Below are positions 25,817 through 47,486 of a stretch of DNA of 64,000 nucleotides, in pieces. The position numbers and the translations under genes are program-made. A model generated the notes under the pieces. The model was not told the origin of the DNA and searched no databases. It saw nothing but the letters and a program-made list of their open reading frames with translations. The first letter of the stretch is position 1. Each line of letters begins with the position of its first letter. Origin of the DNA: a virus (taxonomy: Duplodnaviria > Caudoviricetes); IMG/VR virus record IMGVR_UViG_3300012979_000043, positions 5,615 through 69,614 of that record, one strand, 5' to 3'.

Positions 25817-26203
25817 CTAATTTGTATTGTCAATAGATTTTTCATTCTCTAATAAGATTTTTTCTTTTTCTTGTATCTTTAATTCATCCAATGTCCATTC
25901 ATCTGTTAAAATATCATTTTCATTGACTAATATGGATAATTCTGGGACATCAAAATATACCCAATTTTCATTAATTGTTTGAATGGTTTGAACAACACCA
26001 ACAGGTGTCTGTTGAACAATTGGTTTTGTTATAGTTACTGGTGCATCTCTACATTCAATAACAATTGTTCCATCTTCTTCTATTACATATTTTGGTTCTT
26101 TATGTCCATACTTGTAAATATTATCTAACCAATATGGTTCTTTATATGTATTAGGTATAACAACTACCAATTTATTATTTCTTTTTTCAACCTTTATTGT
26201 CAT
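25817..26203 (-). CDS. hypothetical protein
   Basis: 128 aa ORF, ATGA overlap with upstream gene. Confidence 0.6.
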   Translation of the reverse strand: MTIKVEKRNNKLVVVIPNTYKEPYWLDNIYKYGHKEPKYVIEEDGTIVIECRDAPVTITKPIVQQTPVGVVQTIQTINENWVYFDVPELSILVNENDILTDEWTLDELKIQEKEKILLENEKSIDNTN

Positions 26204-26754
26204 TTAATTGCCTCAATATGATTTTTAATTTTTTGTTTTATTTCTTCCAATGTAACTGGTTCAAAATCATTATTATCAACACCAACATCCCAGCAATTTA
26301 TATTTGCTCTTGCTCTTTTAGAAGTTTCTTCTAACAAATGATATGTTCCATGTGTATGACCATATAAGTGATAACTATCATAATAATATCCATTCCATTC
26401 TGAAATTGGAAAGTGAAATAAAACAACTCTATCATCACCATCTTTAACTTCATGATATGTTACAATATCTTGAAAAGATGCTGACTTGTAATAATTATCT
26501 AATCTATCATGATTACCAGCAATAAGTATTTTTTTACCATTTAATTTAGACATTAATTCTTTAATTTGTTTTGAATTAAAACCCCAACAAAAATCACCTA
26601 AAATATATACAGTATCTTCTTCTTTTACTTTATTATTCCATTTATCGATTAACCCTTGTTGCATATCTTCAACTGATGAAAATGGTCTACCTTTTCCAAA
26701 AGTTAAAATGTTTTTATGTCCAAAATGCTGGTCTGATGTATAAAAAATAGTCAT
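26200..26754 (-). CDS. calcineurin-like phosphoesterase
   Basis: SDQHFGH, LGDF, GNHD, HFP, YGHTH, DVGVD. Confidence 0.88.
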   Translation of the reverse strand: MTIFYTSDQHFGHKNILTFGKGRPFSSVEDMQQGLIDKWNNKVKEEDTVYILGDFCWGFNSKQIKELMSKLNGKKILIAGNHDRLDNYYKSASFQDIVTYHEVKDGDDRVVLFHFPISEWNGYYYDSYHLYGHTHGTYHLLEETSKRARANINCWDVGVDNNDFEPVTLEEIKQKIKNHIEAIK

Positions 26755-26824: not shown

Positions 26825-28147
26825 CTAAATTGATTCTTTTTCAATTTCAATAATATAATTAAAAACTTTATCAGAAATTCCATTGATATGAATAAAACCT
26901 TTTTCATATCCAACACCTTTATTACCATATGGTGCTATATTAATAATATATTTGTTTTTTACAGAACAATCAATTGCACAATCTTGTGTCTGTTCATCTG
27001 TAATCACAATAATTCTATCATATTTACAACTCTTAGTAATATTATCAATAGCATTCCACATATATGTACATCCATGATATTGGGAGTCCCTAATTGATTG
27101 TGCTAGTGCAAATCCACGTCTATTTGGAACTCTGACAACATTATTGGAAAATGTAAAAATATCAATTTCTTCATATAATTCTCTTCCAATCATTGCTAAT
27201 GATTCTGCATAATCAAGTCGTGATGTGAATGCACCATTACTACAACTTGTTTCCATAGATCCAGAAACATCAACTAATATAATTGTTTTTCCATCAATTT
27301 TTGGTTTAATAAATGATTTTAATAATTGATTTTCAATTTCATTTTCATATTTTGGGTTCATTTTTCCACTTCTAATGAAATCAATTGGTAACAATTTATC
27401 ACCATTAATTGTTTTAATTCTATTTTTGATAATATTTACATCAATGCCGACTTTATCCATATTAGAAATATTTTTCAAAAATGCCATATCACCTAATTTA
27501 TTTTTATTCAATAAATTAATCCAAGCATCTTGTTTATTTGATGTTTCTTTGCCAGCAGATGACAATGCAACTTCCCATGTTTCAGCAATTGGTAATGTTC
27601 CATTAATTAATTTATTAATAGCTGTGGTTGATTTTGGATGGCACAAATTTACTACATCTACCAATTTATAATTAGCATCACGATTCCATTTTTGTAATTG
27701 ATATTCATCAAATTTTTCTAATGCCAATGCTATACCTTTTTTCATTTGATTTGGTAGTGGTTTTTTACCATCAATCATATATAATGATATTAACTCACCA
27801 CAATCATCAGGTCTTGTTAAAATTGATGCAATAATATTTTTATTGACAGATTGTCCAGCATTAAATACAGATACAATCATCCACAATGGACAATGCCTTA
27901 ATTTCATATCAAACTTAACTTGTTTGATTAATTCTACAACAGAATCAATTAAATCTTTATCAATACACAGTTTGACAAGTTCCTTGATTCTATCTGTAAT
28001 CTTCTTGCCATTTTCATAAAATTCATCTTCCCACAATAAACAGGACATCACTGACCGTTTTAATTGTTCAAATACATTAATTGTTGATGCTTTACCATTT
28101 TCATATGTTAAGTTTGGTTCTTTTTTTACTGCTTTATTTGTTTTCAT
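26825..28147 (-). CDS. Ro60/TROVE-domain RNA-binding protein (Rsr-like)
   Basis: QLKRSVMSCLLWEDEFYE, LRH.P, RPDD.GE, ETWE..LS, MAFL.N; vWA MIDAS-like DVSGSM and ITDEQ. Confidence 0.92.
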   Translation of the reverse strand: MKTNKAVKKEPNLTYENGKASTINVFEQLKRSVMSCLLWEDEFYENGKKITDRIKELVKLCIDKDLIDSVVELIKQVKFDMKLRHCPLWMIVSVFNAGQSVNKNIIASILTRPDDCGELISLYMIDGKKPLPNQMKKGIALALEKFDEYQLQKWNRDANYKLVDVVNLCHPKSTTAINKLINGTLPIAETWEVALSSAGKETSNKQDAWINLLNKNKLGDMAFLKNISNMDKVGIDVNIIKNRIKTINGDKLLPIDFIRSGKMNPKYENEIENQLLKSFIKPKIDGKTIILVDVSGSMETSCSNGAFTSRLDYAESLAMIGRELYEEIDIFTFSNNVVRVPNRRGFALAQSIRDSQYHGCTYMWNAIDNITKSCKYDRIIVITDEQTQDCAIDCSVKNKYIINIAPYGNKGVGYEKGFIHINGISDKVFNYIIEIEKESI

Positions 28148-28168
28148 ATTCAACACTCCATTATAAGG

Positions 28169-39586: not shown

Positions 39587-39656
39587 ATGATATGATAGGA
39601 TTCGAACCTATGACCACCAACATTAAGTCGGTGCTCTACCACTGAGCTACATATCC
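39587..39656 (-). pseudogene. degenerate tRNA
   Basis: Canonical D and T arms but shortened anticodon loop (CCGAC-TTAAT-GTTGG), 1:72 mismatch, no CCA. Confidence 0.6.
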
Positions 39657-39820: not shown

Positions 39821-39855
39821 TTTCATATTCACTATTGTCCAACAACTTGGTTATA

Positions 39856-40138: not shown

Positions 40139-40346
40139 ATTTGAATAACCATCTTTACGTAATGGTTGTGAATGGTTGTAATAACGGAAATTCTGTTTTG
40201 GATAATTATTTCAAACCCAATGTTTACGTCAGACCAAACATCAAAAAGCCAATGTTTTCATGATAACATTAAACATAAGGGGTTCTTAACTTGACAACCC
40301 CAATAAACGGGAAATTTTTCAACCTATGGCATCTCCTAACCAAACT

Positions 40347-40822
40347 CTTGTAATTGTTAAATACTATTGGCACATAACATATTTACTTTATAACATAATA
40401 AAAATCACTTGTCAAGTATTATTTCAAAAAAGTTTTATGATAATATACCTACTACACAACCGTATTATTATCAATGGCATTTAGTTTATTAGATAGTAGG
40501 CTCTATAAACATAACTTTATAACCATATAATAAGGAAAGAGTTGCGACCTCTAATTACGTTGCACTGATTTGAACAGATTTCTTATCATAAACTGATAAT
40601 GTTTTACATAAACTATCATACAACCTTATAATTGTTTAATACCATTGGCACACAAGTTAATTACTCTTATGGCTTATGATAATGTGATCATCATTATCTC
40701 TATTTGTTAATAAACCTATCAATTTTTTCTCTCCAACAGTTTTCACCTGATTTCAATACTAAAATTGATGTGCTATTGATACATCTACACCATATTAACA
40801 TCAATGGTATTAAATAATTATA
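40347..40822. repeat. 28-bp direct repeat with an inverted third copy
   Basis: 40347-40374 vs 40625-40652 (25/28 identical); 40801-40822 is an inverted copy (20/22). Confidence 0.7.
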
Positions 40823-40906: not shown

Positions 40907-40942
40907 AATCAAAACTTCATTTTGTGACTTAGTTCAATAAAT

Positions 40943-41014
40943 TAGCAAATTAGTTTCATTCATAAATGAATTACTTATACCCAATACCACGTAAAGGTTT
41001 TGCTATTATTGGGC
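40943..41014 (-). ncRNA. HDV-like theta ribozyme Rz3 at the tRNA-Tyr 3' end
   Basis: G1 directly follows discriminator A73; P1 GCCCAAT/ATTGGGT, P2 TAGCAAA/TTTGCTA, L3 TTTACGT, GAAACTAA. Confidence 0.88.
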
Positions 41015-41097
41015 TGGACAGGGATGGATTCGAACCACCGAACTCCGAAGAGGTCAGGTTTACAGCCTGATGCATTTAGCCACTCTGCCACCTGTCC
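41015..41097 (-). tRNA. tRNA-Tyr(GTA)
   Basis: Loop CT-GTA-AA, long variable arm, no encoded CCA. Confidence 0.93.
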
Positions 41098-41106
41098 ATT
41101 TAAAAT

Positions 41107-41170
41107 TGGTTGCGAGTTCTAGGGAGCTACCCTAGAATTTCTTCGTTAATGAAACGAAAAGCTACTCGCA
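41107..41170 (-). ncRNA. D-armless, CCA-ended tRNA-like RNA (64 nt)
   Basis: TGCGAGT/ACTCGCA-A-CCA, TTCGT-TTCATTA-ACGAA arm, TCTAGGG-TAGCT-CCCTAGA arm. Confidence 0.65.
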
Positions 41171-41182
41171 TAAAAATAATTA

Positions 41183-41263
41183 TATAAACTCTTGATGGAG
41201 TTGAACCATAACTGTCGTTCTTTTTCAAGAAAGGATATTACCCAATATCTGCAAGAGTTTATA
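41183..41263 (-). ncRNA. tRNA-like/pseudo-tRNA element
   Basis: 12-bp terminal stem TATAAACTCTTG/CAAGAGTTTATA, GATATT/AATATC arm, ATGG-TTCAACT-CCAT T arm; weak anticodon arm, no CCA. Confidence 0.5.
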
Positions 41264-41373
41264 AAAAATACTTTAATTAAAAAATGACTGACATTCTATA
41301 CTTGAACTATTAGATGTACACAACCCACCCCGATTTTGTCACTTCCACAAAAAGCTTCAATCATTTTTTATTA

Positions 41374-41476
41374 GATGATATTTAGTTTCAGTTACAACAC
41401 TGATCAGCAATTGTTAGAGTTAATAACTCACCTACTCACATTCTCCACCACGTGAAGGTAATCATCATTGGAGAAC
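41374..41476 (-). ncRNA. HDV-like ribozyme Rz4
   Basis: P1 GTTCTCC/GGAGAAT, P2 GATGAT/ATCATC, L3 TTCACGT, GAAACTAA. Confidence 0.78.
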
Positions 41477-41749
41477 TATGGTGGTAAATGTATAGAATAT
41501 CCACTAATGGTTGATTACTTCCTTTAGCAATCATTCTATACCCACACATAATAGAACCTCTCTATCACTCGTTCTACAGAGCGTCCCACTTCCCTATTTA
41601 AGCACAAACTCTGGGCCCGAATCATCATCTATTTGATAAGGCAGGTTATGAATTATCTTAGTGCATTCTGCCAATGTCTTTCCATTAGTCCATAGTCTTT
41701 CCCATTGTATAACAATGACTTCATAGTAATCAACTGTCCATTCATTATT

Positions 41750-41838
41750 TATGACTTTTAGTTTCATCATAAGGATGCATCCTATATGATTACTTACATT
41801 CCTCACCAACGAGAAGGTAGTCATATTATTTGAGGAAC
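41750..41838 (-). ncRNA. HDV-like ribozyme Rz5
   Basis: P1 GTTCCTC/GAGGAAT, P2 TATGACT/AGTCATA, L3 TTCTCGTT, P4 ATCATA/TATGAT, GAAACTAA. Confidence 0.8.
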
Positions 41839-41902
41839 ACTTTATTATACATAGGGTGATGCAAATGTAAGGAAAAATCATCACCCAACATATAAAAAAT
41901 AG

Positions 41903-42040
41903 AAGGACAATGCCACAACACGATTATTATCTCTCAACTATGCCACCCACTATATAATATAGTCATCATAGGTTCTTTTTACGAGTTCCTAAATAACCCT
42001 TACTAAACAAACATTGTGGTGTTTGTTATTCTGTGTCCTT
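41903..42040 (-). ncRNA. unassigned structured RNA between Rz6 and Rz5
   Basis: AAGGACA/TGTCCTT closing stem; hairpin loop CCACAA complementary to distal TTGTGG. Confidence 0.45.
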
Positions 42041-42172
42041 TGTATCAATTAGTTTCCACTGACAACTCTAAACAGAGACCTTCTGCTCTCTCCACTGCAG
42101 ATATGCTTTATTAACACCATCCATCAGGTACTTATGTCTTAAACCAACGTAAAGGTTTGATACATTTAAGAC
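42041..42172 (-). ncRNA. HDV-like ribozyme Rz6 (long P4)
   Basis: P1 GTCTTAA/TTAAGAC, P2 TGTATCAA/TTGATACA, L3 TTTACGTT, GAAACTAA. Confidence 0.78.
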
Positions 42173-42212
42173 TTTCTTATTCACTAAATTCAACAACCGT
42201 TTTGATATATTC

Positions 42213-42241
42213 TTTATATCACTTTTTGAAACCAATGTCAA
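42213..42241 (-). promoter_or_regulatory. sigma70-type promoter of the ribozyme cassette
   Basis: AAAAAAGTTC TTGACA-17 nt-TATAAA. Confidence 0.75.
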
Positions 42242-42272
42242 GAACTTTTTTATTTCTTTTTTGATTTCTTTT

Positions 42273-42360
42273 TTATCAAATGAAACGCAACCAATCTGCA
42301 TGCTCCTACAAGTTTTTAAACTCTGAGTTGGACTCTCACCAACCTCTTTTCATCTGATAA
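42273..42360 (-). ncRNA. second permuted tRNA-like (YrlA-like) RNA
   Basis: TTATCAGATGAA/TTCATTTGATAA closing stem, T arm GTTGG-TGAGAGT-CCAAC, then a hairpin, then D-like TGCA-GATTGGT-TGCG. Confidence 0.5.
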
Positions 42361-42364
42361 TTAA

Positions 42365-42393
42365 TATATACACTATCTAAAATAAAATGTCAA
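42365..42393 (-). promoter_or_regulatory. sigma70-type promoter
   Basis: AAAAAAGTTC TTGACA-17 nt-TATATA; start site falls at the 5' end of 42273..42360. Confidence 0.7.
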
Positions 42394-42596
42394 GAACTTT
42401 TTTATAAAAATTAAATCCCAAACTTTTCAATGGTTTGGGATTTTATATTTCTATTAAATGTTGCTTTACCTTATATTTTTTATAAAACCCCCATACCAAT
42501 ATTATGTGAATAACATAATTCACATTTAATTTGCATAAAAATTGGTCTTATACTTAACATTTAACTTTATCCTTTGTATTATATTTTATATTTATA

Positions 42597-46202: not shown

Positions 46203-47486
46203 CTATTTTAACAGTTTTTCAAAAATTGCTTCTAATACCGGAATAACAATACCATTACCGGCAGTTTTATAAAGTTGAGCATCTGAAATGCCATGAATTT
46301 TATCAAATTGTTCATCTTTCCAACCCATAAGTCTATAACATTCTCTTGGTGTCAACTTTCTAATTTTGTAGTTAGAAATGATTTTTTCATTTGATGTTGT
46401 TGCAGTAAGAGTTGGTGATAATCCTTCTTCATCATAACATCTATTTGCTTTTTCATATACACCATCTTTTTCTTCAAATGTCATAATACTTTCATCAAAC
46501 ACTGTTGTTTCAATTTTAAGTAATTCTTTTAATTGATTCCATAATTCAGCATCAGGAATAGCAAAACAATCATCTGTTCTAAACCAATGTTCAACTTTTG
46601 TTAATGGAATTCCTAATGATTCAGCAATTTGATTATTGGTTAATTCACTAAAACAATTTGGTTCATTAACATTGTTTGTAATTTCTGCCTTTTTACCATT
46701 TGGCATATCAAATTCAATAATCTGCTTTGGTTGTTTATAATCTGTTGCAACTAATGCACCCATTGTATTTTCTGTATTATATACAATATCTCTCTGACCA
46801 ATACTTCTACTTTCAGGTGCAGTTGTCCCAATAATTGATTGACCTTGTGGTTTATATTTAAATCTTTGCTGAACCTTTTCAGACAAATAATATTTGGCAT
46901 CAACAATTGGTTCTAGGATATCCTTTAATCTAATATTTAATTGTCTTGGTTCAGGAAATACATATGGTTTATGTTCTCCTAAAATAGATACACAAAAAAC
47001 TCGTTCCCTATTCTGTGGAACCCCAAAATCTTTTGCATTTAGGACTTTATAATAATTAGTATATCCCATATCTTCTAAAACCTTTAACCAACCTTCAAAG
47101 TTATGAATATGCTTTTTAGATAATAGGTTTTTAACATTTTCCATTAAAAGATACTTTGGTTTAACTTTTTTAATTATCTTTTCACATTCCCAAAGTAATG
47201 ATGACCTTGTTCCTGAATCTTTATCACCACCTGCTTGTTGACCAGCAATACTAAAATCTTGACATGGACTTGAATATGTAATCAAATCCCATTGACCTTC
47301 AATCATATGTTCAACATCAACCTTATTAATATCTCCTAAATTGATTGTTTCACCATGTATTTGGTTATAAATGCTTTCAGCATACTTATCAATATCACAT
47401 TGAGTTGATTGATGTTCAATTCCAATGTTTTTAAGTGCTTGTGTTTGACAACCAATTCCACTAAATAATTCTAAAACTTTTAACAT
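46203..47486 (-). CDS. DNA (cytosine-5) methyltransferase
   Basis: LELFSGIG, SPCQ, ENV, PQNRERVF, RKLTPREC, AGNGI. Confidence 0.93.
   Translation of the reverse strand: MLKVLELFSGIGCQTQALKNIGIEHQSTQCDIDKYAESIYNQIHGETINLGDINKVDVEHMIEGQWDLITYSSPCQDFSIAGQQAGGDKDSGTRSSLLWECEKIIKKVKPKYLLMENVKNLLSKKHIHNFEGWLKVLEDMGYTNYYKVLNAKDFGVPQNRERVFCVSILGEHKPYVFPEPRQLNIRLKDILEPIVDAKYYLSEKVQQRFKYKPQGQSIIGTTAPESRSIGQRDIVYNTENTMGALVATDYKQPKQIIEFDMPNGKKAEITNNVNEPNCFSELTNNQIAESLGIPLTKVEHWFRTDDCFAIPDAELWNQLKELLKIETTVFDESIMTFEEKDGVYEKANRCYDEEGLSPTLTATTSNEKIISNYKIRKLTPRECYRLMGWKDEQFDKIHGISDAQLYKTAGNGIVIPVLEAIFEKLLK

Follow-up and report, generated by a model that had tools for sequence, protein, structure and literature searches.

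The window examined here, 64 kb of the 69.6-kb IMG/VR virus record IMGVR_UViG_3300012979_000043, carries four complete ribozymes similar to that of hepatitis delta virus (HDV-like), designated Rz6, Rz5, Rz4 and Rz3, in series within 1.2 kb on the minus strand of positions 42172-40942. The cassette is probably (roughly 60%) a self-processing stretch of an early transcript from the RNA gene island of a jumbo phage, in which the ribozymes serve as punctuation. The simplest reading is that they act in cis, making the 3' end of the RNA upstream of them and detaching the promoter leader. Folds, covariation and the conservation of array and cargo are reported as found, while cleavage, read-through, end chemistry and stabilisation are what we infer.

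The HDV-like ribozymes of the cassette

An earlier sequence-only reading of this DNA had placed four such ribozymes in series here and had predicted that they would release pieces measuring 334, 362 and 462 nt. Each copy indeed parsed as an HDV-like fold, and the G1 positions (Table 1), read directly from the sequence, reproduced the three sizes exactly. The core motif ACCTTnnCGT(n)GGT occurred six times in the window, always on the minus strand, against a chance expectation of 0, and no extra copies appeared in the window even with three mismatches allowed. All six copies, which include Rz2 and Rz1 in addition to the four of the cassette, fit the strand order P1-P2-P3-L3-P3'-P1'-J1/4-P4-J4/2-P2', a nested double pseudoknot, and all six carry GAAACTAA with the catalytic C at the start of J4/2. 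Every cassette copy has a 7-bp P1, a P2 pseudoknot, a P3 of ACC/GGT enclosing L3, a variable P4 hairpin and the J4/2 segment GAAACTAA. The 3' P1 strand is followed by R-U-RAGUA, and P4 by GAAACUAA, the CUAA of which equals J4/2 of genomic HDV, and then by the 3' P2 strand. In HDV-like ribozymes the cleavage site is marked by G1, which usually closes P1 through a G.U wobble; the closing pair was G.U in Rz5, Rz4, Rz3, Rz2 and Rz1, and G-C in Rz6. P4 was smallest in Rz1, at 3 bp, measured 5 bp in Rz3 and reached about 85 nt in Rz6. From their sequences the copies are classed with the HDV-like ribozymes, in a P4-bearing subfamily near theta and HDV-F-prausnitzii. They would self-cleave and leave a 5'-OH and a 2',3'-cyclic phosphate, ends that are predicted because catalysis would be of the HDV type.

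A pattern scan of IMG/VR gave 76 loci; from those and later loci, 69 distinct ribozymes of the type were parsed. Helix statistics were scripted and no covariance model was used, as MAFFT lost the P1 register across J1/2 segments of variable length. A perfect 7-bp P1 was present in 91% of the 69 members compared to 2.7% of shuffled controls, with 47 different P1 sequences represented, and a P2 of 5-8 bp was present in every member (69/69). The P1.1 pair, formed between L3 position 3 and J1/4 position 1, was U-A in 54 members and C-G in the other 15, with 0 exceptions. The catalytic C was likewise invariant (69/69), and position 1 was G in 38/69 and C in 21/69. Orthologous copies gave the same picture at closer range, with compensatory changes in both P1 and P2 of Rz4 in the related contigs L089, L090 and L085, covariation of the upper P4 stem of Rz5 in L089, and a change of the Rz5 P1.1 pair from C-G to U-A in L085.

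Conservation of the array and its cargo

Relatives of the cassette were located with the upstream 299-aa gene as anchor. The sequence-only reading had suggested looking for the same architecture in related phages, and the array of Rz6, Rz5 and Rz4 was found to be kept in contigs with an identical anchor (L077-L084) and also in L090, L175 and L089, among which cargo A varies in length so that piece A spans 227-358 nt. Contig L085, with an anchor 70% identical, has neither Rz6 nor cargo A; a promoter and an unrelated leader of ~100 nt precede its Rz5, and a new promoter stands directly after its Rz4. Elsewhere, in L009, the same ribozyme type alternates with tRNA genes in the order tRNA-Rz-tRNA-Rz-tRNA.

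Piece B, which consists of Rz5 and cargo B, measures 361-362 nt in six lineages. The expectation that the RNA between the ribozymes would be conserved in relatives was borne out most clearly by cargo B, which is 92-96% identical at the nucleotide level to its counterparts in L085, L175, L089 and L090 with no net length change (L089 has one compensated indel). Rz5 is 91% identical (to L085). By comparison, identities were 67-75% for neighbouring genes, 59% for Rz4 and 57% for tRNA-Tyr; the Rz5-cargo B unit, at 91-95% identity, is a conservation island. Since the position of the unit is syntenic, its conservation reflects constraint or recent exchange, not transposition.

Structure was also expected of the cargo, and it was found. 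Cargo A has a fold z of -2.1, and two of its helices change in a compensatory manner in L175 and L090, AAGGACA/TGTCCTT to AAGAAGTA/TACTTCTT and AACAAACA/TGTTTGTT to ACAGATA/TATCTGT. This covariation was read by eye, RNAalifold being unusable as MAFFT misplaced the L175 deletion. The fold z of cargo C is -4.4; its cloverleaf lies at 41262-41183, with acceptor-like and T-like stems that covary in L085, and its Y-shaped element (about 41170-41107) ends in ACCA just ahead of tRNA-Tyr.

The predicted cuts fall 1-4 nt past a terminal helix at Rz3 (the tRNA-Tyr acceptor stem), at Rz4 (the cargo B hairpin) and at Rz1 (a hairpin). In the window and in L078-L084 the tRNA-Tyr gene has no encoded CCA, and Rz3 begins right after the discriminator, while in L077 (8399-8490), L175 (9151-9240) and L085 (5984-6072) it has an encoded CCA and a T-run and no ribozyme follows. 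The CCA plus T-run on the one hand and Rz3 on the other are a natural swap between two routes to a 3' end, among near-identical phages.

Promoters, leader and transcription

The cassette is preceded by a predicted sigma-70-type promoter with an UP element and -35 box at 42250-42236 and an extended -10 box (TGnTATAAA) ending at 42213. A simple scan of the minus strand from this promoter to tRNA-Lys detected no intrinsic-terminator-like site. Of the proposal that one promoter reads through all four ribozymes, the promoter and the lack of a terminator-like site stand, and a single shared transcript would be consistent with both.

Host-type promoters are separated from the point where the RNA product begins by a conserved leader with the consensus AGTTGTTrrAcAT-AGTGAATAWGAAA, the transcription start of which was taken from the position of the -10 box. 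On the minus strand of the window it was found at 42173-42206, at 39822-39852 and also about 32786, and where a ribozyme follows, the leader ends exactly at the cleavage site. The same leader is located upstream of Rz2 and of ribozymes in L018, L019, L085, L088 and L090. It also precedes one tRNA and other non-ribozyme RNAs in several phage lineages, with L032 among the carriers. The leader might act as a small RNA once released, as a binding site for a protein or as a further promoter. Downstream of one promoter, leader, Rz2 and hairpin, in an order kept in relatives, is a 70-nt type-I tRNA (39587-39656, minus strand) without a long variable arm, which has a UAA anticodon and is called as Leu by ARAGORN.

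A second promoter of the same family (42402-42364, minus strand) stands ahead of a predicted RNA of ~89 nt (region 42270-42402), in which a 10-bp stem between the 5' and 3' ends surrounds three hairpins (z = -1.7). There is no terminator between this RNA and the cassette promoter. It is possibly a small RNA, Y-RNA-like in outline.

Table 1. Positions of the ribozyme cassette, its cargo and associated features in the window
Feature	Position	Strand	Description
Cassette promoter, sigma-70-type	42213-42250	minus	A-rich UP element, TTGACA, 17-nt spacer, extended -10 TGnTATAAA; activity predicted
Promoter leader, ~34 nt	42173-42206	minus	Ends in AGTGAATAAGAAA (42185-42173), directly at the Rz6 cleavage site
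Rz6	42041-42172	minus	G1 42172 (G-C), P2 TGTATCAA/TTGATACA, 85-nt P4 domain, catalytic C 42052
Cargo A, 202-nt structured non-coding RNA	41839-42040	minus	Closing helix from the first base after Rz6
Rz5	41750-41838	minus	G1 41838 (G.U), P2 TATGACT/AGTCATA, P4 hairpin, catalytic C 41761
ORF58, possible 58-aa protein	41594-41770	minus	Start codon in the 3' strand of Rz5 P4
Cargo B, 273-nt conserved RNA	41477-41749	minus	Long terminal hairpin, 4 nt ahead of the Rz4 cut
Rz4	41374-41476	minus	G1 41476 (G.U), P2 GATGAT/ATCATC, catalytic C 41385
Cargo C, three structured modules	41099-41373	minus	Long hairpin domain, tRNA-like cloverleaf, Y-shaped element
tRNA-Tyr(GTA)	41015-41098	minus	No encoded CCA; discriminator A at 41015
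Rz3, theta position	40942-41014	minus	G1 41014 right after the tRNA discriminator; catalytic C 40953
Ro60/TROVE gene	26825-28156		Same RNA gene island as the cassette

A model for processing of the cassette

In the proposed model, the host-type promoter at 42250-42213 would start the RNA, and the four ribozymes would fold during synthesis, each cutting at its own 5' edge. Rz6 would strip the conserved leader of ~34 nt, Rz5 would set the 3' end of structured RNA A, Rz4 would set that of RNA B 4 nt past its terminal hairpin, and Rz3 would set the 3' end of tRNA-Tyr at the discriminator, replacing an encoded CCA. Each ribozyme would remain as a folded 5' cap with a 5'-OH on the next piece, while each upstream piece would end in a 2',3'-cyclic phosphate, and such ends should withstand 5'-end-dependent ribonucleases (RNases) and 3' tailing. 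The products would be linear, and tRNA-Tyr would still have to be cut by RNase P, lose its cyclic phosphate and receive a CCA. Self-cleavage in vitro has been seen with four theta ribozymes (PMC10879173), as has the cutting of polycistronic RNA by tandem hammerheads of prophages (PMC3088659).

Several observations weigh against this model. P1.1 of the family consists of one Watson-Crick pair and an invariant U.U, which could reduce activity, and in L175 the L3 of Rz4 has TG in place of a CG that is otherwise invariant. The Rfam models stay below their gathering scores, and tRNAs are the sole hits at gathering thresholds. With RF02682 (HDV-F-prausnitzii), Rz3 gave a full-length match of 22.7 bits compared to a gathering score of 44 and Rz4 scored 14.9 bits, and in a permissive Rfam scan Rz5 and Rz6 had no RF02682 match and the cargo returned noise, the HDV-type models of Rfam having been built from other subfamilies. 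A weak -35/-10-like site at 41871-41844 could start transcription near G1 of Rz5. Furthermore, under the model each cargo would keep a ribozyme on its 5' end without obvious benefit.

Alternative explanations

A different function for the best-conserved part of the cassette is possible but somewhat unlikely, namely that of a mini-mRNA, in which ribozymes insulate the Rz5-cargo B-Rz4 unit and an open reading frame (ORF), ORF58, encodes a 58-aa protein. Rz5 would then free the unit from upstream RNA and gate translation, because a Shine-Dalgarno-like AGGA and the start codon lie inside P4, and Rz4 together with the 3' hairpin would protect the 3' end. Codons 2-7 of ORF58 overlap J4/2 and P2' of Rz5. 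The frame is intact in 6/6 lineages and was called by independent gene finders in all relatives, and a purine-rich AGGA, AGGG or GAGG precedes its ATG by 9-12 nt, as in other genes of the phage. Moreover, the same ribozyme type is found ~25 nt ahead of ATG codons in other phages (e.g. L006 and L007), and ribozymes flanking genes or enabling translation are known (PMC3088659; PMC13725137). However, the ~15 substitutions in ORF58 are spread 4/6/5 over the codon positions, with ~12 non-synonymous compared to 2-3 synonymous, and its third positions are as conserved as the 3' untranslated region while neighbouring genes have diverged to 67-74%. All homologs recovered from 5.8 billion proteins were at least 89% identical, and a degenerate search for the coding pattern in diverged cargo B found nothing. 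An Atlas search gave noise-level hits and the AF2 predicted local distance difference test (pLDDT) score was 57.6, neither of which settles coding. We estimate that chance alone would produce roughly one ORF as long as this in 1.2 kb of the AT-rich strand, and a clearly spurious ORF of 77 codons spans the cassette promoter. Cargo B is more likely a constrained RNA than a plain mRNA.

It is distinctly unlikely that the RNA island acquires and sheds the ribozyme copies readily, as modular inserts that were spread by recombination and are tolerated without being needed, some of them already inactive, with no function of the series as such. The presence of ribozymes does vary among close relatives, Rz3 being found in L078-L084, with L081 as an exception, and not in L077, and Rz6 and cargo A being missing from L085. 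In addition, P4 of Rz4 is replaced in L085 and L175, the L3 CG is mutated in L175, and no more than one or two ribozyme copies are present in relatives whose proteins are 55-60% identical. Against this, P1, P1.1, P2 and P4 stay paired across orthologous copies through compensatory changes, for which selection for folding is required. Tolerated inserts would also not account for cut sites placed precisely at RNA ends (at the discriminator base and 2-4 nt after hairpins), nor for the fixed length and 91-95% identity of the Rz5-cargo B unit.

Ligation or circularisation as the purpose of the cassette, proposed in the sequence-only reading, is not supported, and the head-to-tail joining of pieces A and B by a phage or host RtcB-type ligase into circular RNAs of 334 and 362 nt is very unlikely. 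RtcB joins a 5'-OH to a 2',3'-cyclic phosphate, the ends left by HDV-type cleavage, and the end chemistry expected here would suit it. The length of piece B is also strictly conserved. As for the enzyme itself, RtcB was detected in 6/6 family-level relatives tested (E about 1e-63; records of 203-287 kb). These are G001-G005 and G028, the IMG/VR 3300045988 records behind L014, L017, L040, L053, L058 and L072, and they form a clade of jumbo phages, about 365 kb in size, to which the window phage is related. Ro60 shows 60-61% identity in 4/5 of the relatives tested, and a structural protein 54% in 4/5 tested; in G001, RtcB and Ro60 are far apart, at 113 kb and 252 kb. RtcB, a DRB0094-type RNA ligase domain and a CCA-adding enzyme are absent from the 69.6-kb contig, which is uninformative given that the contig is 19% complete, and RtcB may sit in the missing 81% of the genome.

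The arrangement of the pieces points the other way. No end-to-end helix was found in pieces A and B (z -0.6 to +0.7), and the minimum free energy fold of piece B leaves its ends unjoined. The predicted back-joined junction, in which …ACCACCAUA would meet GUUCCUC…, is absent from Joint Genome Institute (JGI) metagenome contigs, and 14/14 module-bearing contigs are collinear with the DNA and contain no permuted junction, both being weak tests as these are DNA assemblies. A re-closed circle would rebuild the cleavage site of Rz5 or Rz6 and be cut again, and the 462-nt piece holds tRNA-Tyr and would be re-cut by RNase P. Furthermore, the RtcB-bearing relatives carry no more than one or two ribozymes, separated by 5 kb, and no tandem cassette. 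RtcB is absent from 27 other phage records with the ribozyme type (16/27 at least 90% complete), among them G010 and G013, in which paired ribozymes are separated by about 170 nt. The ordinary role of phage RtcB is tRNA repair, by which its presence in these phages can be explained. Very unlikely as well is that the 361-362-nt unit is excised by its two ribozymes and closed by the RtcB of the Ro60/RtcB jumbo-phage clade into a DNA-encoded circular RNA; if true, a phage would make naturally what ribozyme/RtcB systems have been engineered to make, and the circle might serve for regulation as a stable RNA or as a mini-message.

Phage and host context

The completeness of the record was estimated at 19% by CheckV, which implies a jumbo phage genome of ~365 kb. 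The 21 tRNA genes of the window lie between 30.2 and 41.1 kb, without exception on the minus strand, and the minus strand of the island carries ~10 near-identical host-type promoters that all combine an A-rich UP element with TTGACA and an extended -10 box. Most genes of the window have strong Shine-Dalgarno sites. Because of these sites, the extended -10 boxes and the low G+C, the host is probably a member of the Bacillota. No close relatives of the window phage were found in INPHARED, and IMG/VR searches from single proteins (Ro60 and the anchor protein) returned nothing; an IMG/VR search with an alignment of anchor homologs returned short fragments only.

The sequence-only reading had placed Ro60 in the same island as the cassette, and its gene is indeed located there (Table 1). 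Directly downstream of it on the minus strand (26200-26754) is a gene for a calcineurin-like metallophosphoesterase of 184 aa (Pfam PF00149; phrog_547). This protein was considered as a healer of cyclic-phosphate ends and dropped, since it is not syntenic with Ro60 in relatives. Within the gene-free interval between tRNA-Lys and tRNA-Cys, the motif TGTGCCAATrGTATTwAACAATTAyAAG occurs twice on the minus strand (40340-40400 and 40620-40680), one copy directly after a promoter, and could be the sign of a further family of repeated small RNAs. In the relatives L086 (971-4261) and L087 (771-4061), the cytosine-5 DNA methylase gene beside the replication genes is interrupted by an intein, and the product is 1096 aa with Hint and intein-splicing domains; the window copy (46203-47486) encodes 427 aa without an intein.

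Comparison with known ribozyme systems

Closest to the cassette ribozymes are the theta ribozymes, a minimal HDV-like form from gut Caudoviricetes (Kienbeck et al. 2024, PMC10879173), with which they share the core ACC-U-NN-ACGU-GGU ... CUAA, the P2 pseudoknot and an occurrence in phages. Rz3 resembles the tRNA-associated theta ribozymes, which cleave within 5 nt of the tRNA 3' end, in that it cuts 0 nt past the discriminator of a CCA-less tRNA. In contrast, Rz4, Rz5 and Rz6 are not beside a tRNA, a difference from the tRNA-associated theta ribozymes only, as non-tRNA hits are counted as theta too (PMC10879173). Such hits, not adjacent to tRNAs and of unknown function, make up 42% of the total (PMC10879173). 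Whereas the minimal theta form has a short L4 of the GTAACG type, ribozymes of the window type have a P4 of 3 to >30 bp flanked by RAGUA...GAAA, and whereas the theta P1.1 is of the CC/GG type (supplement descriptor, PMC10879173), theirs is one covarying pair plus U.U. Also unlike theta ribozymes, two of the window ribozymes follow promoter leaders, and tandem arrays around non-tRNA RNAs are not described for theta ribozymes in PMC10879173. The Faecalibacterium prausnitzii HDV model RF02682 is also close, with Rz3 aligning to positions 1-74 of 74 and P1, P3, L3, P4 and CUAA matching.

Circular RNAs made by ribozymes together with RtcB are represented by Tornado-type engineered systems and by retrozyme and viroid-like circles (reviewed in PMC7761336). 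As in these, the flanking ribozymes of the cassette would leave a 5'-OH and a 2',3'-cyclic phosphate. Unlike these, in which the ends are united in a stem or rod, no end-pairing was found in pieces A and B, and the upstream ribozyme would be retained and could re-cut a circle.

In their arrangement, the four ribozymes are most like the clustered hammerheads of prophages (Perreault et al. 2011, PMC3088659), which are likewise co-oriented ribozymes in series enclosing short blocks, with a shared transcript presumed in the case of the cassette. For those, processing into unit-length RNA was proposed, and spliced or circular products were considered and none detected (PMC3088659). The prophage ribozymes differ in being of the hammerhead class with protein-coding cargo, whereas those described here are HDV-like and their cargo is mostly structured non-coding RNA, tRNA and tRNA mimics.

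Taken together, the most valuable leads are the P4-bearing HDV-like subfamily, defined here, which escapes both the Rfam models and the published theta descriptor; the unit of promoter, leader and ribozyme; and the 273-nt cargo B RNA, which is far better conserved than surrounding genes in a clade carrying Ro60 and RtcB. The model would give a concrete role to the ~40% of phage theta-type ribozymes without a known job, as general end-makers for structured RNAs other than tRNAs, and a further one beyond tRNA 3' trimming as removers of a conserved promoter leader. With theta ribozymes and clustered prophage hammerheads as close precedents, the description of the cassette as an undescribed phage system was overstated; RNA processing by phage ribozymes is already known, and it is the form seen here that looks new.

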